DNA of 64,000 bases from a virus: positions 32,001 to 96,000 of the IMG/VR virus record IMGVR_UViG_3300021478_000019; one strand, given 5' to 3'. Under the pieces are notes generated by a model. It did no database searches and had not been told where the DNA came from. It saw only the letters and a program-made list of their open reading frames with translations. The first letter of the stretch is position 1. Every line of letters starts with the position of its first letter. Below are positions 6,159 to 54,660 of this stretch, piece after piece. The position numbers and the translations under genes are program-made.

Positions 6159-6568
6159 GACCGCAGATCCTCGGGCACCTGCGAGGGGTCGTAGATCGCT
6201 AGCCCCTGCAGGCACAGCTTGAAGCCACTGGCCCTGGCCTCGTCCAGTTCGGCGTTGATCAGGTTCGTGAGCCCGCCCTTGGCCCGGTGCAGCGCCGCCT
6301 CGGTGAGGTTGCCGACCATGGCCTGGTGGCGATCTCTGACGTCAGCGGGGTCGACGACGATGTTGTTCTTGCGGACGTCAGCGGCGCCCACCTTCTCCAT
6401 GGCCCAGCCCCAGTGGGCCGCGCCCACATGGGCCTTGTTGGCCAGTTCAAGGAGAGCCGGCTGGCCGTCCAGGGCTTCCTTCAGCTGGGCGAAGGCGCCC
6501 AGCATCTCGTTGGAGCCATTGTGCAGGTCTTCGTAGGGTTGCAGGTCGTTGTTGTCGGTTGATGTCAT
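6155..6568 (-). CDS. Hypothetical protein, leaderless
   Basis: ATG 6 nt below the -10 of promoter P1. Confidence 0.75.
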   Translation of the reverse strand: MTSTDNNDLQPYEDLHNGSNEMLGAFAQLKEALDGQPALLELANKAHVGAAHWGWAMEKVGAADVRKNNIVVDPADVRDRHQAMVGNLTEAALHRAKGGLTNLINAELDEARASGFKLCLQGLAIYDPSQVPEDLRS

Positions 6569-7407: not shown

Positions 7408-7538
7408 CGCTCGGGCACATTCGGATTGTCAGGTGAGTCCTCGATCCAGCCGTAATCGTCCGGGGGCCCGTAGTCGCGCTCGTCCTCGGCCTGGTCGATG
7501 CGGGGATCGTCATCGTCGTCGTAGGGGCGTCGGCCCAT
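7404..7538 (-). CDS. Small acidic protein
   Basis: Strong RBS GGAGGAGG before MGRRPYDDDDD. Confidence 0.5.
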   Translation of the reverse strand: MGRRPYDDDDDPRIDQAEDERDYGPPDDYGWIEDSPDNPNVPER

Positions 7539-8006: not shown

Positions 8007-8455
8007 GACTGCTCCTCTGCGGCCAGTAGGAGCAGGCGCACACGGGCGAAGGCCACCTGGTCGTCCTCGTCGAGCGTGGCCTTGTGGTCCTGCTCAAAGT
8101 CAGCCAGGGCAAAGCGCAGGTCACGCAGGCTGATGCCCTCGTCCTCGTCGGCGCCCTGGCCAGGGTCGCCCCAGTGGGGCTCCACGTAGGAGTCAACCGC
8201 GTCTTCGGCGTCCTGGCGAGCCTCCCGGTGGACCGGGCAGAAGGGGTCGACGGCGTCACCAGGGCAGCAGCAGTCCAACTCGTCGGCGCCCTCGTAGGCC
8301 CGCTCGTACTCATCGGTGCCCCGGATGAAGGAGTTGATGGAGCCCTCCCGGCCACAGATGCTGTGCAGCATCTGCATGTCAGGCTGGGGGATGAAGGTGC
8401 CGGAATAGGTGTCGCACTCTGGGCACCGGTAGCCGGGGTCTTGGTTCGTGGTCAT
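8003..8455 (-). CDS. Acidic zinc-ribbon protein, leaderless
   Basis: ATG 6 nt below the -10 of P2; CPEC...HSIC, CCC...CPVH. Confidence 0.75.
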   Translation of the reverse strand: MTTNQDPGYRCPECDTYSGTFIPQPDMQMLHSICGREGSINSFIRGTDEYERAYEGADELDCCCPGDAVDPFCPVHREARQDAEDAVDSYVEPHWGDPGQGADEDEGISLRDLRFALADFEQDHKATLDEDDQVAFARVRLLLLAAEEQS

Positions 8456-9148: not shown

Positions 9149-10101
9149 GACTCCTCCTCTTCGGTGTCGACGGGCAGGTTGCCCACGATGCGGTTGACGG
9201 CTTTCTGAGCCGCACTGGCAGCCTGGATGATCAGGTTCTTGTCACCCTTCAGCGCCTTGATCCAGTGGGCCAGGTAGGCGGCACTGGAGTCGAGCGTGGC
9301 CTGCTGCTCGATGCCGGCGATGGCGCACAGCATGGCGGCGCCAAGCTCAGCGATTAGCTCCTCGTTTGAATACACGGCGTCCCCGAAGGCGCCGAAGGTG
9401 CCCTCAGCGATGCCCTGGCGAGCCTCACGGCTGGAGTGCCCGGTCGAGTGGACGGCTTCGTGGAACTTAGTGGAGTGGTACGCCTCGGCGCTGTGGAACT
9501 GGTCACGCAGGGGCAGCTGGATGTGGTCGGTGCCGGGCTGGTAGTAGGCCCGATCGCCCCCATGACCCAGCGATGGCCCGGTGGCCAGGTAGTCAGCGAC
9601 GATGGCCTCAGCGCCCTCGATGGCCTCTACCGGGGTGCGGACGGCGACCTTGGGCAGCCGGGCATCCTCGGCCCAGTCGCACTGGTCGACATTGAAGACG
9701 TGGAACAGGCGCAGGATGTGGAACTTCTTGATGGTGCCGTCATCCTGCTCCCGCTCAAAGGTGATGGGGCGAATGATCTCGACTGACTTCTCACCCTTGC
9801 GGACCTGGCCGCCGCGTTCGGACATCTGCTTGTAGGTGCCCCAGTACAGCGAGTTGTAGCCCTTTTCCAGGGCGGTGAGCCACAGGACCAGGACATTGGA
9901 GCCCTGGTAGGGCTTGTAGGTGGCCAGCGAGGTGGGCAGGCCAGCGATGCCGTCCCACTCCTTGTGCCAGATGACGGTGCCAGCCTCCAGGGCGGCGATG
10001 ATCTTGTTGGTGGTCTCCTGGGCGGCATCACGTACGACCTTGGTCACACGGGCCTCATGCTTAATAGACACCTTGGGTCGGGATTTGGTTGCGGTTGCCA
10101 T
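9145..10101 (-). CDS. ardC: ArdC-family antirestriction protein (ssDNA-binding domain plus zincin-like metallopeptidase domain)
   Basis: Y.G.N...LW, W.TYKQ....GGQVRKGEK, F.VFNV.Q, AYY.P..D.I..P, HEAVHSTGH, YS.EELIAELGA. Confidence 0.9.
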   Translation of the reverse strand: MATATKSRPKVSIKHEARVTKVVRDAAQETTNKIIAALEAGTVIWHKEWDGIAGLPTSLATYKPYQGSNVLVLWLTALEKGYNSLYWGTYKQMSERGGQVRKGEKSVEIIRPITFEREQDDGTIKKFHILRLFHVFNVDQCDWAEDARLPKVAVRTPVEAIEGAEAIVADYLATGPSLGHGGDRAYYQPGTDHIQLPLRDQFHSAEAYHSTKFHEAVHSTGHSSREARQGIAEGTFGAFGDAVYSNEELIAELGAAMLCAIAGIEQQATLDSSAAYLAHWIKALKGDKNLIIQAASAAQKAVNRIVGNLPVDTEEEES

Positions 10102-10601: not shown

Positions 10602-10846
10602 GACCGGCGACGCCTCTTGCTGTCCTGCTCCAGCGCACGCATGGCCCGCTGCTCAGCGCGGTCCAGCGCACGCATGTCAGCGTCGTAGATGGCCTCGCCC
10701 CCGTCCCCCAGGTGATCAGCGTCATCCTTGGAGCCGTAGCGAGCGATGTAATCGGAGCGGGTGGGGCCGCACTTGTCGACCCACTTGCGCTCCTGATCGA
10801 GCCAGTAGAGCGCACTCTCTAGCTCTGTCTTGGGCTTGGTTGTCAT
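10598..10846 (-). CDS. Hypothetical protein, leaderless; first gene of the leftward early unit
   Basis: MTTKPKTE 7 nt below the -10 of P4; YIARYGS....GDGGEAIY.AD motif. Confidence 0.75.
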   Translation of the reverse strand: MTTKPKTELESALYWLDQERKWVDKCGPTRSDYIARYGSKDDADHLGDGGEAIYDADMRALDRAEQRAMRALEQDSKRRRRS

Positions 10847-10984: not shown

Positions 10985-11338
10985 ATGACATCCGACCATA
11001 TCCCCGAGAACATCCGCCGCATCCTGGCCCCGGCGCCAGGCTCTGTCATCGCCGTGCGGGTGCGCCCCTCTGAATCCATGTCCCAGTTCCCTCCCCAGTT
11101 CATCGCGGAGGACATCGAAGACCTGCTGGAGCGCTCCTCCCGTGAATGGGGCGGCGAACAGTGCGATAACTGCGGCTGCGACGGCTACGTCATCGAGCGT
11201 GACCCCACCTTCCCCTCCGACTTCCCCGAGGGCTGGGTGGTGCGCTGCTCCGGTAGCGAGTACTCAGACGGCTTCGTGAAGGGCTGCGACACCACCTACC
11301 GGCTGGGCTGGTTCCCCGAGAACCAGGTGGCCTTCTGA
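10985..11338 (+). CDS. Hypothetical protein, leaderless, with a Cys cluster
   Basis: MTSDHIP below P5; CDNCGC...C...C. Confidence 0.75.
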   Translation: MTSDHIPENIRRILAPAPGSVIAVRVRPSESMSQFPPQFIAEDIEDLLERSSREWGGEQCDNCGCDGYVIERDPTFPSDFPEGWVVRCSGSEYSDGFVKGCDTTYRLGWFPENQVAF

Positions 11339-11751: not shown

Positions 11752-11889
11752 ATGACCAAGCGCAAGCCATCCAAACCGGCCCGCCGGGCCATGAACCCCT
11801 ACACCACCCTACGAGCCCAGACCATCCCATCCAAGAAGAAGGTCGCCAGCAAGCGTGCTTGCCGGGGCCGCGTCCAGACAGGAGACTGA
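11752..11889 (+). CDS. 45-aa highly basic protein, absent from the ORF track
   Basis: MTKRKPSKPARRAMNPYTTLRAQTIPSKKKVASKRACRGRVQTGD*; start defined by P6. Confidence 0.7.
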   Translation: MTKRKPSKPARRAMNPYTTLRAQTIPSKKKVASKRACRGRVQTGD

Positions 11890-12170: not shown

Positions 12171-12446
12171 ATGACAACGACCAACCCATTCATCAATCGC
12201 CCGACCTGGGAAGAGGTGATCGACCCTCTGGCCGATTCCCCTCTCTGGGTCCACATCCGCCAAGCTGCCAGCATTGTGCTGGAGCATCTGCTGCACAACA
12301 TGGGTGACTTCGACTCGGGGATCTCCTCCAGTGACATCAACCACACTGTGTTCGGGACGGCGTCCTGGCTGGACCGCTCCTCGCCCACCTACCCCGGCGA
12401 CGTCCTCACCGCGCTGGTGCATCAGGGCTACGAGTCCCGGCCATGA
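12171..12446 (+). CDS. Hypothetical protein
   Basis: Abuts upstream stop; ATGA overlap downstream. Confidence 0.65.
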   Translation: MTTTNPFINRPTWEEVIDPLADSPLWVHIRQAASIVLEHLLHNMGDFDSGISSSDINHTVFGTASWLDRSSPTYPGDVLTALVHQGYESRP

Positions 12447-12697: not shown

Positions 12698-12730
12698 TGA
12701 CTTGCATGTCACGGGCAGGGCCACTAGGGT
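12698..12730 (+). promoter_or_regulatory. Repeated promoter P7, followed only by an 8-codon ORF
   Basis: TGAC-TTGCAT-N17-TAGGGT-N7-GTG. Confidence 0.7.
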
Positions 12731-12812
12731 CTTGCCCGTGACCCCAGTGGGACTCCGAGACTAGGGCTGCCTGTAAATACCCCGAAGACCCAGCCAAAGT
12801 TTCCCCTCTCCC

Positions 12813-12844
12813 TGACTTGCATGTGAGCCCCCCAGGAGTATGCT
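12813..12844 (+). promoter_or_regulatory. Repeated early promoter P8
   Basis: TGAC-TTGCAT-N16-TATGCT-N6-ATG. Confidence 0.85.
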
Positions 12845-12850
12845 TGCACC

Positions 12851-13804
12851 ATGACATCCGACCAAGAGTACGAACTGGTGTACAAGGGCATCTGCGCCGT
12901 CGCCGCCCACTGTGACGGGGCCCAGTCCCTCGACTACGTGGGCTTCGACGGCCAGGACACCCACTTCGGGCGCCGCATCGCATCGGTGCCCTTTGATACC
13001 TGGACCCCCGCCGTGCGGGAAGAGGCGGCTCGCATCGCCAACAAGTATCAGGCCCAGATCCTGCGCTGGACGGGCATCGACGTCACCCTGCTCCAGGTGG
13101 TCAAGGATGCCAAGGGCATCGGCACCGTCCGGGCTGCCCGTGACGACGCCCGCACCTATGAACGCCGGGCCCGTGGGGCCAGCAAGGTGGCTGCCCGCAA
13201 GGTGGACGTGGAGGCGGGCCAGCTGCTCATCGCCTGGGTCAAGGGAGACCCGGACTTCTCGGCCCTCCTCGACGCCGCCAGGGCTCTGCCTGGTCGCCGG
13301 TTCAACGGCAATGGCTGGACCGCTCCGGTCTCCGATGAGGTGCGTGACATGATCCTGGTCTGGGACTTCCCGGTCACCCCGGCTGCCCAGGCTCTCCTCG
13401 ACGGGGCTGCCGAGTTGCCGGCAGCCCCCCAGGCGCCCAACATCACGCTCGACGACGCCCGCCATGTTGCCATCACCACCGGCTACGACGAGGCCATGCT
13501 GCAGCCCCTGCGGGCTCTGCCGGGTCGCCGTTGGGATGCCAGCCGCAAGGTCAACACGGCTGAGACCCACCCGGCGGTCATCCGCCTGGCCGCGAAGTTC
13601 AACCTGACCATGTCCCCCGAGGCTCGCCAGGCGTGCGAGACCGGGGCCACTGACCGCCAGGCTGCTGACCTGGCTGCCGGTGACGCCCAGGCCATCGTGG
13701 CCCACGTCAGCCGGGCCAAGGATCCCACCACCCTGCCGGATGCCTTTGAGGACATGCTGGCCCCCATCCTGGCCAGCTACGGGGCCGAGCGGGCACTGTC
13801 ATGA
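12851..13804 (+). CDS. Protein with two HARP-like repeats, probable accessory module of the SNF2 ATPase
   Basis: CDGA...D.VGF...D..FG N-terminus; repeats RALPGRRFNG..W and RALPGRRWDASRKVN. Confidence 0.65.
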   Translation: MTSDQEYELVYKGICAVAAHCDGAQSLDYVGFDGQDTHFGRRIASVPFDTWTPAVREEAARIANKYQAQILRWTGIDVTLLQVVKDAKGIGTVRAARDDARTYERRARGASKVAARKVDVEAGQLLIAWVKGDPDFSALLDAARALPGRRFNGNGWTAPVSDEVRDMILVWDFPVTPAAQALLDGAAELPAAPQAPNITLDDARHVAITTGYDEAMLQPLRALPGRRWDASRKVNTAETHPAVIRLAAKFNLTMSPEARQACETGATDRQAADLAAGDAQAIVAHVSRAKDPTTLPDAFEDMLAPILASYGAERALS

Positions 13805-14657: not shown

Positions 14658-16124
14658 ATGGCACTCAACTTCAACTCATTCCTCCCCGAGGGGGTGGATC
14701 TCTACGATTACCAGCACGTCGGCGTGGCCCTGGCCCTCTACAACACCGCGGATGGCAAGGGCACCTGGCTGGCCGATGAGCAGGGGCTGGGCAAGACCCG
14801 CCAGGCCATCACCGTGGCCCTGGTCAAGGGCTGCAAGAAGATCCTGGTGGTCTGCAAGTCGGCCCTCAAGGCGAACTGGGAGCGTGAGATCAATCAGTGC
14901 GCCCCGCAGTGGACGACCCAGGTGCTGGGCGGCACTCGCCCCTACGAGACCATGGCCCAGTGCGTGATTATCTCGTTTGATCTCCTGGCCACCTGGTCCG
15001 ATGCCCTCCTCTTCGACGGCTTCGACGCCCTGATCATCGACGAGTCGCACTACGTCAAGAGCAAGGGCACGGCCCGCCAGCCGGTGCAACGGACCATGGC
15101 TGCCCTCAAGATTGGCGAGCAGCTGCGGGCCCGCAAGGGGCTCATCCTGCTCCTCAGTGGCACGCCCCTGTTGAACCGTCCGGTGGAACTGGTGACCCAG
15201 CTGGAACTGATGGGTCGTCTGGAGGAGATCAGCCCCACCCCTCGCCGGGCCAACCCCACGGCCAAGGATTGGGAGTACGCCTTCAAGTTCTCATTCTGTG
15301 GGGCCCACAACAACGGCCATGGCTGGGAGTTCAAGGGCTCCAGCAACCTGGACCTGCTCAATACGCGGGCCCGCAGCCGGTGCCTGATCCGCCGCCTCCG
15401 CACCGAGGTGCTGGACATGTCCGAGACCCATCGCATCCAAACGCCGCTCAGCCTGAACGGTGGCCTCGACGAGTACCGCCGGATCGAGCGCAACTTCGTG
15501 GCCAAGAATGACCAGTCCTACTACCTGGAACTGATGAACGCCCTGCGCCAGGCTGCCGGGCTGGCCAAGGTGGACGCGGCGGTCGATTGGATCAACACCT
15601 ACCTGGAGGAGAACCCCGACAAGAAGCTGGTGGTCTGGGCCTGGCACATCCCGGTGCAACGGGAGATCGCCCGCAAGGTCAAGGGCGCCATCTACTTCAA
15701 GGGCGAGCAGGACAAGGGCCGGGTCGAGGAGGCCAAGGCGCAGTTCAACACCGGTGACGCCCGCGTCATCGTCTGCAGCCTGCAGGCGCACCGTGAGGGC
15801 CACACGCTGGTGGGCGATGGCCATAACGTCACTGACTGCCTCTTCGTCGAGAGCCCCTGGCACCCCGGCGCCGTGAGCCAGGCCGAGGATCGGATCAATC
15901 GCATCGGGCGCAAGGCTGACGCCGTGTTCGCCACCACCCTGACCGTGCCCAACACCATCGACCAGGAACTGGCCGACCTCATCGCCGAGAAGTGGGACAC
16001 CTTCCGGGGCGCCGTGGATGGCACCGTGCCCGAGGGGGCCGAGGATGACATCCAGGCCATCCTGATGGCCCGCCTGCGGGCCCGCAAGGCGCAGGAGGCC
16101 CAGGAGGGGGGTGAGGCCAGCTGA
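14658..16124 (+). CDS. SNF2-family (SMARCAL1-like) helicase/ATPase
   Basis: LADEQGLGKT, IIDESH, LLSGTP, QAEDRINRIG. Confidence 0.92.
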   Translation: MALNFNSFLPEGVDLYDYQHVGVALALYNTADGKGTWLADEQGLGKTRQAITVALVKGCKKILVVCKSALKANWEREINQCAPQWTTQVLGGTRPYETMAQCVIISFDLLATWSDALLFDGFDALIIDESHYVKSKGTARQPVQRTMAALKIGEQLRARKGLILLLSGTPLLNRPVELVTQLELMGRLEEISPTPRRANPTAKDWEYAFKFSFCGAHNNGHGWEFKGSSNLDLLNTRARSRCLIRRLRTEVLDMSETHRIQTPLSLNGGLDEYRRIERNFVAKNDQSYYLELMNALRQAAGLAKVDAAVDWINTYLEENPDKKLVVWAWHIPVQREIARKVKGAIYFKGEQDKGRVEEAKAQFNTGDARVIVCSLQAHREGHTLVGDGHNVTDCLFVESPWHPGAVSQAEDRINRIGRKADAVFATTLTVPNTIDQELADLIAEKWDTFRGAVDGTVPEGAEDDIQAILMARLRARKAQEAQEGGEAS

Positions 16125-16270: not shown

Positions 16271-16861
16271 ATGACAACGAAGACCAACCCCGTCACCCCC
16301 GAGCTTGAGGCTGCCGCCGTGCGCGTCGTCGCCTCCCTGAACGAAGTCCCCGCTGGCTTCGTGCCCGCCGCCCCCGGCCCCCGCCCCACCGTGGGCCAGG
16401 TCGTCAGCTGCTGGGGCCACAACAAGCAGCGCGTCGGCATCGTGACTGAAGTAACCAAGACCCGTGTGCATGTCCTGTTCACCACGCCGGGCGCCATCAA
16501 GGAGGCCCAGGACAGCGTGGCCCGGACCATGGAGCGCCCCACCAGCCTGGAGGCCCACATCGCGGAGAACCGGCCCTACGTCACCTCCAACTACCTCTTC
16601 GACCTGGCCGAGTCCCGGCTGGAGACGGCCAAGTATGGCCGCACCTACAAGGGTGAGGTGGACACCGAGCATCTCCTGCGCCACGCCGACGCCCTGGCTG
16701 CCATCGAGGACGAGGGCTTTGAGGCCCGCCTGACCCGCCTGTCCCAGACCGAGTTGGACGGCGTGCTGGCCCGCCGCCTGGTCCCCTGGCAGGCCAGGGT
16801 GACCATGACCCACAGCTGGAAGAAGATCTCCGAGGTCTTCGTCCTGCCCGAGGAGGTGTAG
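16271..16861 (+). CDS. Hypothetical protein, leaderless, with an SH3-like segment
   Basis: MTTKTNP below P10; VGQVV....R.GIVTEVTKTRVHV. Confidence 0.75.
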   Translation: MTTKTNPVTPELEAAAVRVVASLNEVPAGFVPAAPGPRPTVGQVVSCWGHNKQRVGIVTEVTKTRVHVLFTTPGAIKEAQDSVARTMERPTSLEAHIAENRPYVTSNYLFDLAESRLETAKYGRTYKGEVDTEHLLRHADALAAIEDEGFEARLTRLSQTELDGVLARRLVPWQARVTMTHSWKKISEVFVLPEEV

Positions 16862-16978: not shown

Positions 16979-17308
16979 ATGACCAACCGCATTGTGACTG
17001 AACTGATCGACGCCCAGAACGAGGACAACGGCGGGCCCCTGGCCCCCGGCCAGGAGGGCTTCTGGAAGATCTGGGGAGCCGGGGCCCGCGACGTCCAGGC
17101 CGGGGACCTGGTCCTGGTCCGCTGGGCCGATGAGGACGGGGGCCATCACATCGAGGAGTACGCCATCGCCGCCCGCCTCGACGAGGGCAACGGCATCGCC
17201 CCCAAGTTCGCCGCCGAGTCGGGGGAGATCTTCCGCCTGGGCATGCTGCAGCGCATCGTCGTCCTGCGCTGGGGCACCGGCAACACGCTGAGCCCCAACT
17301 GCCGCTGA
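16979..17308 (+). CDS. Hypothetical protein, leaderless
   Basis: MTNRIV below P11; ARDVQAGDLV motif. Confidence 0.75.
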   Translation: MTNRIVTELIDAQNEDNGGPLAPGQEGFWKIWGAGARDVQAGDLVLVRWADEDGGHHIEEYAIAARLDEGNGIAPKFAAESGEIFRLGMLQRIVVLRWGTGNTLSPNCR

Positions 17309-18846: not shown

Positions 18847-19119
18847 GTGACAGACCAACCAGAAGAGCAGCAGCCTACGGTGGGAGCAGTGGTGGAGATC
18901 AGGGATAGGTCCCTAGCTGACCAGGCCAGCTGGTGGAGCGAGCAGATGGACGCCCTGGCTGCCGACCTGTATGAGGCCGATCCCCTGGCCTGCACCCAGG
19001 TAGCTGCTTGCTCCGTATTCCTGGGCCAGGTGGAGGCCAAGTTCAGGGAAACAGAGGACCAACTGCGGGCCATAGAGGCGTCGGTGGACCGCATGAAGGC
19101 GCTGGCGAGTAAGGCGTGA
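18847..19119 (+). CDS. Coiled-coil hypothetical protein
   Basis: RBS GAGGAG before GTG; first gene after the non-coding kilobase. Confidence 0.7.
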   Translation: MTDQPEEQQPTVGAVVEIRDRSLADQASWWSEQMDALAADLYEADPLACTQVAACSVFLGQVEAKFRETEDQLRAIEASVDRMKALASKA

Positions 19120-20684: not shown

Positions 20685-20939
20685 ATGGGCCGAGTCGGGA
20701 AGCTGCTGGCGGTCGGAGCCCTGGTGGCCGGCCTGGTAGTACCCACCGTCCAGCTGGCTCGCAGCGCCGCCGACTACTCGGCCCCGCCGCGGCTCCACTT
20801 CGGCCCGGTGATCTTGAGCCTGCCCGCCACCACCCCCCACCTGGTCACCTACCAGGACCCCGTCCTCACCACCGGCTCCCTGGTCCTGCTGGCCGATGAC
20901 GACAGCCCCCAGCTGCTCCTGCAGGTGCTGAAGATATAG
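20685..20939 (+). CDS. Small secreted or membrane protein, leaderless
   Basis: TTGTCC-N16-TACGTT-N6-ATG; N-terminal signal-like segment. Confidence 0.65.
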   Translation: MGRVGKLLAVGALVAGLVVPTVQLARSAADYSAPPRLHFGPVILSLPATTPHLVTYQDPVLTTGSLVLLADDDSPQLLLQVLKI

Positions 20940-20940
20940 A

Positions 20941-20966
20941 AGAGGGCCCCCCGAAGGGGGCCCTCT
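20941..20966. terminator. Hairpin between convergent genes
   Basis: AGAGGGCCCCC-CGAA-GGGGGCCCTCT. Confidence 0.75.
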
Positions 20967-20999: not shown

Positions 21000-21545
21000 T
21001 CAGTGCAGGTTGACGAAGCCGACCGCCGTGATGCTGTCGGTCTCAAAGGCGCTGTTGTTGGCGTTGAAGTTGCAGGTGCCGTTGATCCGGCGGGGCTGGG
21101 TGCCCTGGATACGGACGTTGGCCAGCAGGTTGCCGGTGGCGTTGCGGTAGTCCCCGGTACCCCGCACGATGGTGACGTTGACGCCGTTGACCCGCCCGGT
21201 GAAGGCACAGGTGAACGGGTTCTCACGCCCAGGCACGAAGGTGCCCCCGGTGTGCAGGACGGTGATCGAGCCATTGGGGTCGACCAGGGTGGTGCGGCCA
21301 CTGTTGGGCGGGTCAAGAGGCCGGGAGGGAATGTCGGTGGCGTTGCCGGGCCCGGTGACGGGGCCGCGGCTGGAGGTCCAAGGACCGACGCTAAGACCGC
21401 CGCCCACCGAGTACTGAGTGGCGTGGATGACCTCGATACCGGCTCTGGGCGCCGCTCCTGCGGACGAGGCCAGCAGGCCCCCGGCGGTGCCTCCTACGAT
21501 GGCCAGTGCGGAGACGGCCAACAGGCCGCGCTTCATGATGTTCAT
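21000..21545 (-). CDS. Secreted protein with a predicted allene-oxide-cyclase/dirigent-like beta-barrel; similar to 2237..2692
   Basis: Signal peptide MNIMKRGLL...AGA; IVRGTGDYRNATG motif; two Cys. Confidence 0.65.
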   Translation of the reverse strand: MNIMKRGLLAVSALAIVGGTAGGLLASSAGAAPRAGIEVIHATQYSVGGGLSVGPWTSSRGPVTGPGNATDIPSRPLDPPNSGRTTLVDPNGSITVLHTGGTFVPGRENPFTCAFTGRVNGVNVTIVRGTGDYRNATGNLLANVRIQGTQPRRINGTCNFNANNSAFETDSITAVGFVNLH

Positions 21546-23709: not shown

Positions 23710-24305
23710 ACGGAGCCGGCAGCCAGGGCCAGCCGCTCGGCCACCTTGGCCGAGGCGTTGGTGGTGATCTCCTGGGCGTCGTTCTTGAACTCGTCCAGCA
23801 GTTCGGGGGCCAGCTGGCCGGCATAGCCGACATCGCGGACCACGGTCTTGGCGATCCGGGTGCCCACCTTGTCGGCGTCGCGCTCAGCCACCTCGCCCCG
23901 CTCGGACATGATGCCGCGGGCCGCATCCTGGCGGTCCACCACACTGATCACCCCGGTCACGAAGTCGCAGACGTAGACGTGACCGTTGGTCACGAAGTTG
24001 CGGTTAAACCGCGACCTCGGGGTGAGATAGGTCTTGAGCCGGGTGATATACCAGACATCGTCCAGCCCGTAGACCTCGGGGGTGACCCCGGTGGCGTTGA
24101 CCATGCCGGTCGCCAACTCGCCGCTCTCAACGAGCGGCTCCAGGTTGCTGAGGATGCGGCCCATCTCCGTGGGCACGTTGAACTCCAGTTCCGGCTCCCC
24201 CGGCTTGCCCACCGGGCCACGGGTGACCTGGTAGACGAGATTCTCATCGGTGGCGACGAGAACCTCCACCTCCTCGGGGTGTTCCATCAAGCGAGTGGAT
24301 TTCAC
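23706..24305 (-). CDS. Hypothetical protein divergent from the integrase
   Basis: GTG after RBS GAGGAG; C-terminal half resembles 21881..22291. Confidence 0.7.
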   Translation of the reverse strand: MKSTRLMEHPEEVEVLVATDENLVYQVTRGPVGKPGEPELEFNVPTEMGRILSNLEPLVESGELATGMVNATGVTPEVYGLDDVWYITRLKTYLTPRSRFNRNFVTNGHVYVCDFVTGVISVVDRQDAARGIMSERGEVAERDADKVGTRIAKTVVRDVGYAGQLAPELLDEFKNDAQEITTNASAKVAERLALAAGSV

Positions 24306-24852
24306 CACTGCTCCTCTCTGTTGGAAGCTCGCCACAGGCGGGCTTGTGGTCTGCCCCGGAGGTAAATCAGATCACCACCGGTGATCTGGGTTTCCGAGGC
24401 ACCGCCATGTCTACCATCTCTTATCCCCAGGTGCAAGCGTTTTCTTCCACATGCATGCGCGTTCCCAAGCATGCCGAGACCGCATACTCCCTGGTACTGG
24501 GCGGTTCTTGCTGGTACTCGGTGGTACTGGTGATGCCTGTAGTTGTCCACAGGTTCCTCTGGAGTCCACTGATTACCGGTATTGACCGCCCGTGACCTCT
24601 GGCGTCAGGAAAACCGGACGCCAGCGACTTCCAGCGACCTGCGGCGGAACGAGAAGGCCCCCCGCGTCCGGGGGGCTCCTCCCTGGGATGGTGTCAGGGG
24701 CCGTCGCCTACCTGCCATGCCCTGCTGACGGATTCGCGGTGCCGTTGCCTCTGTGTGCCTCATTGGCTCTGCGCTGATGGCGGTGCGGGCCGTCACCGGT
24801 GACTATATCATCTTCGGTTCTCGGGGGTAACGGGCCCTGACCAGGGCATTTA

Positions 24853-24915
24853 CAGAAAAGGGGCACTATCCGCTCATTGAGGGGCATGACTGCTCATATG
24901 GTGCCCCATTTTCTG
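24853..24915. other. Candidate attP site
   Basis: Imperfect inverted repeat CAGAAAA-GGGGCAC / GTGCCCCATTTTCTG ending 13 nt upstream of the integrase ATG. Confidence 0.55.
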
Positions 24916-24928
24916 GTACCGTGTGGGC

Positions 24929-26365
24929 ATGAAGTCGAGGGAACAACGCCAGGCCGAAAGCGCCTACGAACTGCTATTCGGTATCTACGCCAGACAGTCC
25001 CTGACCAGGGGCGAAACCGAATCTCTGCCCGACCAGGTGGAGCGGGGTCGCAGGGCGGTGGCGAGGGAGGGCACCGCGGTGGTGGAGTTCATCGAGCCCC
25101 CGTCCACATCCGGCTCCAAGCATCGTGGTCTGAAGCGCCAGGAGTTCCCCAAGCTCGTAGAGATGGTGAGATCGGGGGAGATAAATGCGGTCTGGGCCCT
25201 CACCACTGCTCGCATCAGCCGAGGCGGGGGGCCCGGCTGGGCTCCGCTCCTCCAGGCTGCCATCGACATGGGCCTGGACCTCAACCGCTTCGTGATGATC
25301 AGGGATAAGTTCTTGGATGAATCCGCGCTCAACCGTAAGGCTGACGCTGACCGGGAGTTCGCTGAGCAGATGAGCGAATACAGCATCGACAATAAGGAGC
25401 GTGAGGCTCGGGACGGCAAGCCCTCTCCTGGTGGTCTGCGCCCGTTCGGTCGCAACAAGGACGGCCTCACTGAGCATAGGACCGAGGGCCCCATGGTGCG
25501 ACAGATGGGTCGGGAGGCTCTAGGCGGGCGCAAGCCTTACAGCTTCGCTGAGGAACTGAACAGGAAGGGGATCAAAAATACCGGTGGTGGCAAGTTCACA
25601 CCGGAGTCGGTTCGTCGTATTCTCGTCTCGCCCCGCACCGCCGGGTATCGAGAGATCGGTAGCGATCTCATCCCAATAATCGGATGCGAACCGTTGATTG
25701 AGCGGGAAGCCTGGAAGAGATTACGGGACATGCTGGAGACCAACAAGGAGTGGGACACCAGGCCCCGCCATCCGAAGACCTTTGAGTTGCACGGCTTCGT
25801 CTTCTGCGCTCTCTGCGGAAAGGGGCTCCGGGGCCGCTACAAGAGCAACACCAGTGATGAAGATCGCCGCTACTGCTGTCCTTCGGTCGCGCAGGGCGGT
25901 TGCAACAAGATCTCGGCCAGTGCGGCCCAGCTAGAACGAGAGATGGAGCGGAAGGTCATGGGTCAGCTGGCCGACCCCGCGTTTCGTCGAGGGCTGCTGG
26001 CCGGCCAGGAGGATCAGCCGAGTTCGGAACTGGAGGCCCTGAGCAAGGAGAAGGCAGCCCTCCAGACACAGCGCCTCGGGTTCATGGACCTGGCAGGCGT
26101 GTTCACCAAGGACGAGATCGCGGCCAAGGTGCGCCCGGTAGACCAGGCCATCAAGAAGATCGATCACCAGATGGGCACACTGCTGAGCGCCCGACATCAG
26201 TTGGCGATCAGCGTGGACCTCGACAACCTCCCTACCTGGGCAGAGGCGACCTTCGACCAGAAGCGTGACCTGATGCGTCTGGTGGTGAATCGGGTCGAGG
26301 TCGGTAAGTCGAAGACGAAGGGTCGCGCCTGGGACGCTTCCCGGTTGACTTGGCATCTTCGCTGA
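24929..26365 (+). CDS. int: Large serine recombinase (integrase)
   Basis: Catalytic IYARQS; recombinase domain PFG...A..LN..GI....G..F; zinc ribbon CALCG...YCC...C; coiled coil; TACCGT-N6-ATG. Confidence 0.93.
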   Translation: MKSREQRQAESAYELLFGIYARQSLTRGETESLPDQVERGRRAVAREGTAVVEFIEPPSTSGSKHRGLKRQEFPKLVEMVRSGEINAVWALTTARISRGGGPGWAPLLQAAIDMGLDLNRFVMIRDKFLDESALNRKADADREFAEQMSEYSIDNKEREARDGKPSPGGLRPFGRNKDGLTEHRTEGPMVRQMGREALGGRKPYSFAEELNRKGIKNTGGGKFTPESVRRILVSPRTAGYREIGSDLIPIIGCEPLIEREAWKRLRDMLETNKEWDTRPRHPKTFELHGFVFCALCGKGLRGRYKSNTSDEDRRYCCPSVAQGGCNKISASAAQLEREMERKVMGQLADPAFRRGLLAGQEDQPSSELEALSKEKAALQTQRLGFMDLAGVFTKDEIAAKVRPVDQAIKKIDHQMGTLLSARHQLAISVDLDNLPTWAEATFDQKRDLMRLVVNRVEVGKSKTKGRAWDASRLTWHLR

Positions 26366-26501
26366 TCCTGCTCAGCATGATCTGGGCCAGGACTCGACCG
26401 GCCTCATAGGCAAGCTCGTCGGACCACTCTGTCCCTTGCCGGGCTCTGATAGCTCTGACCTCGGCGGTCATCTCGTCCAGTTCTTCCCGGCTGTAGGGCA
26501 T
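26232..26501 (-). CDS. Small protein convergent with and overlapping the integrase 3' end
   Basis: TACCGT-N7-ATG leaderless arrangement; helical N-terminal half. Confidence 0.5.
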   Translation of the reverse strand: MPYSREELDEMTAEVRAIRARQGTEWSDELAYEAGRVLAQIMLSRISEDAKSTGKRPRRDPSSSTYRPRPDSPPDASGHASGRRSPLPR

Positions 26502-26570
26502 GGAGCCGACGGTACGAGCCGGCCTGGCGGCGCACCCCCTTGGCGCTGAAGTTCACCTAAATGGTCGTCC

Positions 26571-26602
26571 TGACTTGCACCCAACCTTCGGTGTGGTAGG
26601 GT
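26571..26602 (+). promoter_or_regulatory. Repeated promoter P12, with no downstream ORF
   Basis: TGAC-TTGCAC-N16-TAGGGT. Confidence 0.75.
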
Positions 26603-26608
26603 TTTGTC

Positions 26609-26680
26609 ACCGGGGATTGGAACCCTTCGGTGGTTGGTTGGTTGTGTCATCGTGAAGAGCCCCCTTCGGGGGGCTCTTCT
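26609..26680 (+). ncRNA. Predicted ~72-nt small RNA
   Basis: Starts at the P12 +1; weak 5' hairpin, G/U-rich unpaired core, ends in GAAGAGCCCCC-TTCG-GGGGGCTCTTC. Confidence 0.6.
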
Positions 26681-26757
26681 AGTTGTGGAGCCCCCTCCCC
26701 AGGGCGGGCGGGGAGGGAAGCTCCGAAGAGGGACGTGGTTGTTGTGACTACGTGCCC

Positions 26758-27453
26758 TCAGCAGCCATCGTAGGGTCTCCATGGCTGAGCGCCGTCCTTG
26801 GCGTACAGCTGCTGGAACGCCGCGTCCTGCTCCGACCGGGAGGCCGTCCAGGCGCTCCCAGACCGGCCCAGGCTGGCCCAGGTGCTGTTCAGGATCCCGT
26901 AAATGTTGCTGGACCCAGCACCGTTTGTCGACTCCCTGAAGGCCACACAGGACTGGAAGGAGCCCGGCGCCCCATATGACCGGGGCGCCGAGTACGACCT
27001 GCTCACCACAGGCGCCCGGACGGGTGTATAAGTCCTGGTAGGAGCCGTGTAGTAGTGGTGAACGGGAGGTGTACTGGCGGGGGCCGTGGGTAGAACAACA
27101 GGGGCCGGCACATAGCTGACAGGTGGGAGGGTGATGACCTGGCCCACCAGGATCAAGTTCGGATTGGGAACGTGGTTGTAGGAGGCCAGTTGTTCCCAGG
27201 TCCGGGCTGGGCGGGCTCGGGTGCCGATCAGCCAGAGGGAGTCTCCCGATCGCACGGTGACCCTCGGCATCGGCGCCTGGACCCGCAGCGCCGTGAGGAC
27301 GGCTCTCGGGGGCGAACCACTGGCCTGGGCCACATCTCCTACCGCTGGAAGGTGGCTACCGGGGCCTACCGGCGCCGCTGCTGCTGTCGCTGCGGATGCT
27401 GCAAAGGGAAGTGCGCCCGCTAGGGCGCACATGAGTAGGAACTTCTTCCTCAT
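26758..27453 (-). CDS. Secreted LysM plus Rpf-like lytic transglycosylase
   Basis: RBS AAGGAG; signal peptide; LysM VRSGDSLW.I...NPNLILVGQVITLP; C-terminal CV..RES...YG....TW...EQ...F..LY...G.QPW. Confidence 0.85.
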   Translation of the reverse strand: MRKKFLLMCALAGALPFAASAATAAAAPVGPGSHLPAVGDVAQASGSPPRAVLTALRVQAPMPRVTVRSGDSLWLIGTRARPARTWEQLASYNHVPNPNLILVGQVITLPPVSYVPAPVVLPTAPASTPPVHHYYTAPTRTYTPVRAPVVSRSYSAPRSYGAPGSFQSCVAFRESTNGAGSSNIYGILNSTWASLGRSGSAWTASRSEQDAAFQQLYAKDGAQPWRPYDGC

Positions 27454-28886: not shown

Positions 28887-29959
28887 CGTCTCGGCCCCGA
28901 GTGGGTAAGGCCCCTGGCGGGCGTCTGGCGAAAGGCACCGTCCCGCTCCCTGACGAAGTCGAGTCGCACCCGCGGGCCGGTAAGTGGAGTTGGGGTGGTG
29001 GTGACGGTGGTGACCCCTTCCTCCAGTCCCTGCGGCCCCAGGACGTGGCCCACCAGCGCCAGCAGCTGCTGCGCTGGTGGTCCCACCCCGGTGAGTGGCA
29101 GCACAAGTTCGCCCTCCATGGCCGGCGCAACATTCCCGGTTGGCTGGAGCATCCCGAACGGGAGGCCGAGGAGGTTCGCTGGTGGATGGAGGACACGTTC
29201 AGGAAGGCTGAGTTGTACTGGGTGAGCCCGGAGATGACCGACGTCATCACCACCCTGGCGCCCGGCATCCCCGACACCCTGCCCCAGCCTCCGGTGCCTC
29301 ACGCCCTGGTCATGTTCGCCAAGTCCATCCCTGGCACCGACGCCGAGGACGGCAGCAACATCTACACCTCGGCGTTCCTGTGGAGCGACATCGACCTGTA
29401 CAAGATCGGCCCTTGCATCGCTATGGAGAGCTACGCCTGGCGGGATTGGGTGGGCCTGTACCGGGGCCTCGACGACGAGGGCCAGCAGCTGTTCCGTGAG
29501 ATCTACCCCAACCGGCTCATGCCCACCGGGGGCTCGGAGTGGCCCATGGGTGCCCTGACCTCGGAGTTCGATACCGCCCCAGCTGAGGATGACCTGCAGA
29601 GGCAGTCCATGGTGGAGGACCGCCGGCTGCTGTCGACCTTCTGGGCCCTGGCCTCTCAGAAGATTGTGATCGAGTCTCGTCACCAGCCCTCTCGGGCAGA
29701 GCGGCGTGCCGCCCAGCGGGAGGGTCGTCCCCTCGACGAGGTTCGTGTGATCCGGCTGCGGGAACCCGCCACCCGCAGCCGCGGTGATGCTGGTTCGGAT
29801 GTGGAGTGGTCCCACCGGTGGATCGTCGGTAAACACTGGCGAAACCAGTGGTACCCCGCATCCGGCCAGCATCGCCCAAAGCTGATCGAGGCGTACCAGA
29901 AGGGCCCGGCTGACAAGCCTCTGGTGCTACGTGAGACAGTGCGAGCCTTGGTGCGGTAA
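28868..29959 (+). CDS. Phage protein of unknown function
   Basis: C-terminal HRWIV..HWRNQWYP...H....I..Y.KGP motif, recognised from other actinophages. Confidence 0.75.
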   Translation: MADTPLTSRPRVGKAPGGRLAKGTVPLPDEVESHPRAGKWSWGGGDGGDPFLQSLRPQDVAHQRQQLLRWWSHPGEWQHKFALHGRRNIPGWLEHPEREAEEVRWWMEDTFRKAELYWVSPEMTDVITTLAPGIPDTLPQPPVPHALVMFAKSIPGTDAEDGSNIYTSAFLWSDIDLYKIGPCIAMESYAWRDWVGLYRGLDDEGQQLFREIYPNRLMPTGGSEWPMGALTSEFDTAPAEDDLQRQSMVEDRRLLSTFWALASQKIVIESRHQPSRAERRAAQREGRPLDEVRVIRLREPATRSRGDAGSDVEWSHRWIVGKHWRNQWYPASGQHRPKLIEAYQKGPADKPLVLRETVRALVR

Positions 29960-54202: not shown

Positions 54203-54660
54203 CTCCGGTACTCAGCGACGATGCGCTCGGTGAACCTGGTCTCGGTGATGGGGGGTGGCTTGGGGTTGAGCAGTCCCTCCTCTCTGGCGATGCGTTGCAT
54301 GCCCTCGATCATCTTGCGGTTCCACAGTCGGCGCCCGGCGTTGCCGCGGCTGCCGACGATGTCGTTGGTGCGGTAGCGGGCCTTGGGGATCCAGGCTTTG
54401 GTGATCCACGATCGGATGGTGACGGGCCGGCGCCCCAGAGCCTTGGCCAGGGCGCCGATGTGGAACATCTCCATCTCCCTGCCGTCAGGCAGGTGCTTGA
54501 TCACCGGATGGGCGTCCCAGCCCTCTTCCTCCTTGGCCTCGGCCCGCTCTCGGGCCAGGCGCAGGGCTTTGTCCTCCCTGGACTCCCGGCGCCGCTGCTT
54601 GGAGGCCGGGTAGAACTCGCTCTGGAGGTCCCCGAAGGCTTCGCTGATCAGGTCGCTCAT
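54193..54660 (-). CDS. MerR-like HTH DNA-binding protein
   Basis: F.IGALAKALGR..VTIRSW.....IP.....R.W. Confidence 0.8.
   Translation of the reverse strand: MSDLISEAFGDLQSEFYPASKQRRRESREDKALRLARERAEAKEEEGWDAHPVIKHLPDGREMEMFHIGALAKALGRRPVTIRSWITKAWIPKARYRTNDIVGSRGNAGRRLWNRKMIEGMQRIAREEGLLNPKPPPITETRFTERIVAEYRSWL

Follow-up and report, generated by a model that had tools for sequence, protein, structure and literature searches.

Phage-encoded small RNAs that act by base-pairing have been described in several systems. The OOP RNA of lambda and the sar RNA of P22 are about 70 nucleotides (nt) long, are transcribed from a dedicated promoter, end in a hairpin, and base-pair with phage messages as cis-antisense RNAs. 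The c4 RNA of P1 and P7 and the CI RNA of P4 cover signals for the translation or transcription of lytic functions and have a part in immunity. Many mRNAs of Actinobacteria and their phages are leaderless, and Hfq is generally absent in the actinobacterial setting. This analysis concerns a putative small RNA of an uncultured phage, which would be read from a spare copy of an early promoter and may mask the leaderless early messages of the same phage. Its locus lies beside an integrase gene at about 26571-26679 of a stretch of 64,000 nt (hereafter the window), which covers bases 32001-96000 of the 117,510-bp virus record IMGVR_UViG_3300021478_000019 (62-70% G+C). Positions are those of the window unless stated otherwise.

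Outside these phage systems, the GU-rich unstructured R1 region of the small RNA GcvB has been described as silencing CA-rich or ACA-containing enhancers, which blocks initiation at many mRNAs (PMC3879156). A small RNA adjacent to an integrase gene, ncRv12659, is expressed from a phage promoter of the prophage PhiRv2 in Mycobacterium tuberculosis. It starts 62 nt from the start of the integrase gene, diverges from it and crosses attR into the host, and is described with no terminator and no known pairing targets (PMC3861185). In cluster A mycobacteriophages, abundant early non-coding RNAs have been reported from Pleft and from the 63-64 intergenic region of D29, with a function reported as unknown (PMC5712189). 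As for the proposed targets, leaderless mRNAs are recognised by 70S ribosomes via the 5'-terminal AUG, and CA repeats just downstream of the start codon are reported to enhance their translation (PMC9031893). In Table 1 of the same review, from 2022, the entry for an effect of small RNAs on initiation at leaderless mRNAs reads 'Unknown' (PMC9031893). A literature search judged by titles found no small RNA acting on leaderless 5' ends.

The reading preferred here is that the spare early promoter gives rise to a non-coding RNA of about 70-75 nt that would mask leaderless early 5' ends. It is put forward as a candidate only, with a confidence that falls somewhat short of even. The promoter belongs to a repeated family. 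Its -35-type box, TGACTTGCA, is present in 11 copies in the window, where 0.34 would be expected and none of 100 shuffles reached 11, and in 12 copies genome-wide, with a TAnnnT hexamer 17-19 nt downstream in 12 of 12. At each of the ten other copies in the window an ATG (once a GTG) begins 6-7 nt past the -10 hexamer, and the mRNAs of this promoter family are therefore leaderless. At the copy beside the integrase gene, the sequence after the -10 reads tttgtca-CCG in place of a start codon. This orphan copy is clearly beyond chance. The sequence-only reading, an earlier inspection of this DNA, had called it a full copy of the early promoter, and for the box, the 17-nt spacer and the TAGGGT hexamer this was borne out; the CTAG box, however, is absent. 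That box was found by eye just upstream of 8 of the 14 family members and is not universal among them. A scan for consensus sigma-70 promoters and terminators raised no flag at the small-RNA locus.

The promoter family recurs in a related contig, G005 (L062), with leaderless ATGs again downstream, which supports the preferred reading. Five exact boxes are present there; in four of them a conserved (A/G)GAAA stands before the box, and a -10-type TATGAT or TACTGT and a leaderless ATG (GTG after 9005) come after it. At 7461-7474 of this relative the promoter box forms a perfect palindrome, TGACTTGCAAGTCA. A further promoter-like site in the same contig, at 29900, was rejected because it sits between two minus-strand structural genes. 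In the phage itself, two promoter copies stand in tandem at 12698-12821, 115 nt apart. The first of these (12698) precedes only an 8-codon GTG frame and is a second family promoter without a real gene of its own. An operator at the orphan copy was also considered, from a direct repeat, AACC(C)TTCGGTG, that flanks the -10; one copy fits the pattern, which is not above chance, and the idea was dropped.

Folding of 26609-26685 gave a weak 5' hairpin, an open core and a UUCG hairpin. This reproduced the shape claimed in the sequence-only reading, which had given the last hairpin 11 base pairs and had placed the core at exactly 26632-26650. The core, GGUUGGUUGGUUGUGUCAU, is single-stranded in both the minimum free energy fold and the centroid fold, with an unpaired probability of about 0.5-0.9. 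The fold of the whole predicted RNA has a z-score of only -2.0. Rfam returned no match in the window at the gathering threshold, and a local Rfam search gave only sub-threshold scores, namely isrB (22.1 of 35), rsmX (21.7 of 56) and K_chan_RES (20 of 51). The anatomy favours a small RNA, in that an intact promoter reads in, a strand-specific hairpin closes the unit and the presumed seed is open. As a separate observation, GGTGGTTGGTTGG (26630-26642) holds four GG runs with spacers of 1-2 nt, and a two-tier G-quadruplex could form there in the RNA or in the non-template DNA.

The target class comprises 13 leaderless 5' ends selected by promoter architecture, through a regular expression of the authors' own, which is a criterion independent of pairing. 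Eleven sites lie in the window between 6568 and 16979 and two lie upstream of it (genome positions 21405 and 22053). These 5' coding ends are 77% A+C. Nucleotides 4-25 consist of 37% A, 40% C, 14% G and 9% T, compared with 23% A, 34% C, 27% G and 16% T at other starts. Of the 13, 6 have ACA as their second codon, although it accounts for 3.8% of Thr codons, and ACCAA is found in 9 of the 13 as against 14 of 183 other starts. Judged by composition, the 13 ends are a natural set of putative C/A-rich leaderless enhancers.

Against this class the core gave a mean duplex energy of -17.58 kcal/mol. Shuffled cores averaged -11.76 +/- 1.38 kcal/mol and none of 1000 reached the observed mean; when CAT was kept in place, the average was -13.63 +/- 1.58 kcal/mol and 6 of 1000 reached it. 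Dinucleotide shuffles of the core did so once in 1000. Shuffling the targets instead gave 0 of 1000 when everything after the start codon was shuffled and 4 of 1000 when shuffling began after codon 2. The other 183 starts had a mean of -12.09 +/- 3.65 kcal/mol (Mann-Whitney p = 1.9e-5), internal windows one of -11.87 kcal/mol under the settings of the class test, and 20 other open reading frame (ORF) starts with a mere TAnnnT-N6-7-ATG/GTG averaged -10.6 kcal/mol. Duplexes of -16 kcal/mol or stronger were found at 9 of the 13 family ends compared with 27 of the 183 other starts, and CAU:AUG pairing at nucleotide 1 in 10 of 13 family duplexes compared with 63 of 127 other ATG starts. The class mean was not reached by any of 10,000 random sets of 13 other starts or by any of 4000 random genomic 19-mers, and the result was stable for target lengths of 20-40 nt. 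The sequence-only reading had proposed an RNA that masks starts in trans and might serve in lysogeny, immunity or timing. Several controls uphold the underlying complementarity for the promoter-defined 13 leaderless 5' ends, but not for phage genes in general. The antisense proposal as a whole is partly supported, with statistical support at the level of sequence for the promoter-defined leaderless early class.

The proposed mechanism, in which the firing of the promoter, the stop of the transcript at the hairpin, pairing in the cell and every biological consequence are inferred, would run as follows. The orphan early promoter would start transcription at about 26609, and the transcript would pass through about 45 nt of non-coding sequence and stop at the UUCG-capped 11-bp hairpin. 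Its single-stranded G/U-rich stretch, ending in CAU, could then pair with the terminal AUG, the frequent ACA second codon and the C/A-rich (ACCAA-type) codons of the 13 mRNAs. In a leaderless message the 5' end serves as start codon and ribosome-recruiting element at once, and a duplex of 15-19 bp beginning at nucleotide 1 would hide start codon and enhancer together, leave the 5' end double-stranded and keep 70S ribosomes from binding. The RNA and its targets come from the same kind of promoter, so that the RNA would accumulate alongside them, and a delayed negative feedback would damp early protein synthesis or bring it to an end. Should the promoter escape repression in a lysogen, translational immunity could be added by the RNA.

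The specificity of the pairing also bears on whether such an RNA would be aimed at host messages, with their leaderless or C/A-rich start regions, instead of phage early genes. Prophage-borne small RNAs acting on host genes exist, and G/U-rich seeds are promiscuous. An actinobacterial example of a small RNA driven by a phage promoter is ncRv12659, beside the PhiRv2 integrase gene (PMC3861185). The complementarity found here is nevertheless specific to the phage's own promoter-linked class, and host targeting is given only a slim chance.

Another way to account for the core is that a protein gene, MTQPTNH (26650-26468), begins there on the minus strand, an alternative that the sequence-only reading had itself named. 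This ORF opens with ATG and family-like first codons. It scores -0.83 bits per codon, with a G+C content at third codon positions (GC3) of 0.52, compared with +0.34 and 0.77 for the integrase gene. No Pfam or PHROG family was found for it, and neither a homologue nor the ORF itself is present in the protein collection. There is no TAnnnT, promoter box or ribosome-binding site before the ATG at 26650, and the hairpin ends 3 nt from it. A protein gene is therefore very unlikely at this place, and hardly any credence is given to it. Under a codon model trained on the long genes of the phage, codon-usage scores are negative on both strands for every ORF that crosses 26502-26757, and A-CCG replaces the start codon after the orphan promoter; the earlier statement that no ORF follows this promoter holds. 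A different minus-strand ORF lies nearer the integrase gene, at 26501-26232 (MPYSREELDEMTAEV...). Its first 45 codons (26367-26501) score +0.29 per codon with a GC3 of 0.76, and TACCGT stands 7 nt before its ATG. The frame then enters the 3' end of the integrase gene for 134 nt, where it scores poorly, and no Pfam or PHROG family and no homologue was found for it.

A number of results weigh against the predicted masking RNA. When the core was compared with all 194 gene starts (windows of -15..+25; genes from a home-made codon-score caller with 91% coverage), the energies came from RNAduplex, which ignores target structure. The shuffle comparison at start regions proposed in the sequence-only reading had a divided outcome. 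The core beat mononucleotide shuffles, with 1-8 of 300 as extreme on five of six measures. It did not, however, pair better with starts than with internal coding windows (mean -14.13 kcal/mol compared with -14.17 kcal/mol for 582 internal windows, no enrichment; 12.4% and 10.7% of duplexes at -18 kcal/mol or stronger). On the sixth measure, the single best duplex, 27 of 300 shuffles were as extreme. The pairings singled out in the sequence-only reading were all recovered. The one at 12171, at -24.3 kcal/mol the best of the 194 starts, is not significant on that last measure; the one at 18847 has -20.9 kcal/mol and a GTG that the gene caller did not pick as a start; those at 16979 and 10846 have -17.9 and -13.9 kcal/mol. 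Antisense strands of the first 19 nt of genes, used as pseudo-cores, match or beat the core in 24-33% of all cases, and within the antisense set from the 30 ATGAC-start genes the core takes the median rank. The core is complementary to nothing more specific than A/C-rich coding sequence that follows ATGAC, and the claim that it is antisense to many phage starts in general does not survive. A gene start outside the promoter family, ATGACCGACTACACCAACCAAGACG at 66027 (minus strand, past the window end, in the same numbering), is the strongest predicted partner there, at -23.5 kcal/mol. It is leaderless-like, with TACAAT-N6 before it and no box.

The class test has limits of the same kind. It was chosen after the all-genes test, and its targets come from the authors' own regular expression while the other starts come from the home-made caller. 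When the core was shuffled with its last 6 nt kept, 57 of 1000 shuffles reached the observed class mean, and much or most of the class signal is the pairing of UGUCAU with AUGACA together with composition. The low-complexity (GGUU)n in the core can in addition slip into many registers.

The core may also be debris. According to this explanation, a 14th leaderless early start has left a relic or a small inverted fragment on the minus strand at 26650-26632, the rearrangement that brought the integrase gene here made the promoter an orphan, and any short RNA read from it has no function. The minus strand there reads ATG ACA CAA CCA ACC AAC C, an exact family signature, and a relic predicts the same complementarity as a masking RNA does. 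In a scan of 22,482 19-mers with at least 13 G+T, the locus ranked about fifth. Four scored higher, of which two are antisense strands of members of the 13-target class, a third is the antisense strand at the start of a further gene and the fourth lies at 54251; equally scoring genome loci are mostly antisense strands of real gene 5' ends. Conversely, the antisense of each family member, paired with the other 12, gave a mean of -12.58 kcal/mol and none of the 13 reached the core, so that the core out-pairs the antisense of all real members, which is mildly against a typical relic. No TAnnnT or box precedes the minus-strand ATG, which the hairpin abuts, and nothing coding follows it. A simple inversion of 26610-26650 that would restore a gene was rejected by eye, since the restored frame would cross the hairpins. 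A relic would also leave unexplained both the intact promoter reading in and the UUCG hairpin specific to the RNA strand.

The comparison with relatives favours the relic. The unit of integrase gene and small RNA is absent from 18 distinct related contigs (the ten long contigs G001-G010 and nine syntenic loci, with G001 in both sets). A search for the region in G001-G010 gave only chance-level matches of 12-19 nt, one of which is a conserved stretch at the stop codon of the convergent LysM-Rpf gene. The nine syntenic loci, found via a neighbouring gene, have no integrase gene and no TGACTTGCA box in their flanks. The LysM-Rpf gene is kept in 8 of these 9 and the operon to its right in 9 of 9. 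In the six loci where the downstream stretch was read (G001, L099-L102 and L104), the left neighbour is a different gene and a single bidirectional terminator with A/U tracts takes the place of the block seen here. The conserved stretch, GTTGTGACTACG, is kept in 5 of 6 regions compared and in G001, and a longer form ending in ACGTG is present in G001, L101 and L102. The integrase block, about 24336-26735, thus appears specific to this phage among the relatives checked.

Megablast and blastn of the region against a phage collection gave no match, and an integrase scan of viral contigs found none. By tblastn, the identity of the integrase to known phage integrases does not exceed 25%, and the nearest non-identical protein in the protein collection is 34% identical. 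The exact 19-nt core has no match in viral contigs; its 21 matches in metagenome contigs all lie in unrelated contexts, and several are unrelated ORF starts or GGTT repeats. A pattern of promoter plus core matched three viral sequences, all unrelated, and no genome contigs. With the region rearranged relative to all relatives and not conserved, the relic stays a live rival, because the minus strand resembles an idealised leaderless start that has neither promoter nor coding potential. It is nonetheless considered rather unlikely.

The hairpin at 26654-26679 has to be judged separately, since it may be no more than an integrase terminator. It has a G/C-rich stem but no U-tract, and the terminator scan did not call it; other gene ends in this phage likewise have G/C-rich stems without clean U-tracts. 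It is one of about eight intergenic perfect stems of at least 9 bp in 117.5 kb. A short-word BLAST of the genome and the related loci found a single match, a twin hairpin at 20941-20966 that has 16 of 16 nt in common with it. The twin lies between convergent genes, 20685-20939 (plus strand) and 21000-21545 (minus strand), and its UUCG loop and U-rich tail belong to the minus strand. The twin follows the minus-strand gene at a distance of 34 nt, with its UUCG on the strand of that gene. Because the UUCG of the twin matches the strand of the gene that precedes it, the comparison suggests that the hairpin at 26654-26679 was built for a plus-strand RNA, which could be the integrase message, the short transcript of the promoter, or both.

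These observations also fit an explanation without a trans-acting RNA, in which the hairpin is the integrase terminator, one of three hairpins in a terminator block, and the stray promoter is silent or yields a short transcript with a purely local role, either transcriptional interference or insulation of the integrase 3' end from LysM-Rpf read-through. The hairpin is the first strong stem past the integrase stop codon, 289 nt away, and is directly followed by two more. It would remain unexplained, however, why the 19 nt in between show class-specific complementarity, and none of the scored features of the promoter copy is damaged. This explanation is regarded as unlikely. The masking RNA thus continues to be the preferred, if tentative, reading of the locus, whose features are collected in Table 1.

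Table 1. Predicted features of the small-RNA locus, its neighbours and the leaderless 5' ends in the window. Energies refer to folding for hairpins and to the duplex with the core for 5' ends.
Feature	Position	Strand	Energy (kcal/mol)	Remarks
-35-type box TGACTTGCA, orphan copy	26571-26579	+		exact, 9/9 box bases
-10 hexamer TAGGGT	26597-26602	+		17-nt spacer from box; same hexamer as copy at 12698
Predicted transcription start, A26609 or C26610	26609-26610	+		inferred; aligned with A of ATG in family members
Weak 5' hairpin of predicted RNA	26609-26631	+	-6.6	from folding
G/U-rich unpaired core GGUUGGUUGGUUGUGUCAU	26632-26650	+		complement of AUG-ACA plus C/A-rich codons
11-bp UUCG-loop hairpin	26654-26679	+	-22.8	presumed small-RNA 3' end, probably also integrase mRNA terminator
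Moderately U-rich tail UAGUUGUGGAGCC (UAGUUGUGG)	26680-26692	+		without clean U-tract
Second strong hairpin	26686-26725		-26.8 (+) / -29.1 (-)	terminator block of convergent genes
Third hairpin, at LysM-Rpf stop codon	26727-26760	-		contains GTTGTGACTACG
Large serine integrase	24929-26365	+		Pfam Resolvase, Recombinase, Zn_ribbon_recom; 478 aa; stop 206 nt before promoter box
Secreted LysM + Rpf-like gene, convergent	26758-27453	-		Pfam LysM; Transglycosylas under cut-off
Leaderless early 5' end	6544-6568	-	-21.3	RNAduplex
Leaderless early 5' end	8431-8455	-	-16.6	
Leaderless early 5' end, ArdC-like gene	10077-10101	-	-17.0	
Leaderless early 5' end	10822-10846	-	-13.9	
Leaderless early 5' end	10985-11009	+	-18.1	
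Leaderless early 5' end	11752-11776	+	-16.4	
GTG 5' end, 8-codon frame	12738-12762	+	-9.5	behind tandem promoter copy; poorest
Leaderless early 5' end	12851-12875	+	-18.2	
Leaderless early 5' end, SNF2 helicase	14658-14682	+	-14.4	
Leaderless early 5' end	16271-16295	+	-19.9	
Leaderless early 5' end	16979-17003	+	-14.1 / -17.9	second value for the pairing singled out in the sequence-only reading

The locus lies inside a 392-bp gap between two convergent genes, the plus-strand integrase gene and the minus-strand LysM/Rpf-like gene. Elsewhere the window encodes baseplate and P2-type tail proteins, DNA polymerase A, RecA, DnaB, SNF2 helicases, an ArdC-like protein and the large terminase. By terminase, the nearest named phages are Streptomyces myoviruses, at about 51% amino-acid identity, and 46 IMG/VR loci have terminases whose best matching segment is 71-88% identical. 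These matches identify the phage as an uncultured member of a well-populated group of actinobacteriophages. A search for tRNA and tmRNA genes found none.

The integrase gene itself looks leaderless, as TACCGT-N6-ATG precedes its start at 24929. Directly upstream of it, an imperfect inverted repeat at 24853-24915 with the arms CAGAAAAGGGGCACTAT and ATGGTGCCCCATTTTCTG is a candidate attP; an inverted-repeat search of 24300-27000 found no attP-like site at the small-RNA locus. An identical integrase protein is recorded on two contigs, the longer of which has 174,249 bp compared with the 117,510-bp record, and a longer assembly or a host junction is possible.

What would a masking RNA at this locus mean? 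If true, it would be a means for a phage to silence a complete class of early genes post-transcriptionally, and it could become a compact tool for silencing leaderless genes in actinobacteria. The bolder form of the idea, that the RNA is a built-in translational off-switch or immunity factor for the whole promoter-defined class and would be the first known case of leaderless initiation under small-RNA control, is doubtful on present evidence. The locus is nevertheless a concrete and cheap test case, with one 70-nt RNA, 13 defined targets of 25 nt and a prediction for compensatory mutations. Even if the proposal is false, the promoter family with its AUG-ACA, ACCAA-rich 5' ends is a natural data set on efficient leaderless translation. 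The locus is best taken as a good experimental hypothesis, a candidate and not a discovery.

Set beside the systems described at the outset, the predicted RNA resembles OOP and sar in outline. Those RNAs are cis-antisense to a gene on the opposite strand, whereas nothing coding lies opposite this one and its proposed targets are 10-37 kb away. The c4 and CI RNAs arise by processing of longer transcripts, with one or two defined target sites, while the unit here would be a free-standing combination of promoter and hairpin with a 13-member target class; an immunity role like theirs is a guess. Whereas ncRv12659 runs divergently from the start of its integrase gene, the unit here follows the integrase gene on the same strand, 206 nt beyond the stop codon, and the candidate attP lies at the opposite end of that gene. 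The cluster A RNAs have been seen experimentally, are about 500 nt long or intergenic, and come with no proposed seed; the RNA proposed here is predicted, is shorter and carries a pairing hypothesis. Functionally, the R1 region of GcvB is closest, as an unstructured G/U-rich seed directed against C/A-rich, ACA-containing translation enhancers. GcvB is an enterobacterial RNA without sequence or Rfam relationship to the one described here, and its targets have Shine-Dalgarno leaders. In the present case a predicted phage RNA would direct the same kind of seed against the phage's own leaderless messages, at the 5'-terminal AUG and the first codons.

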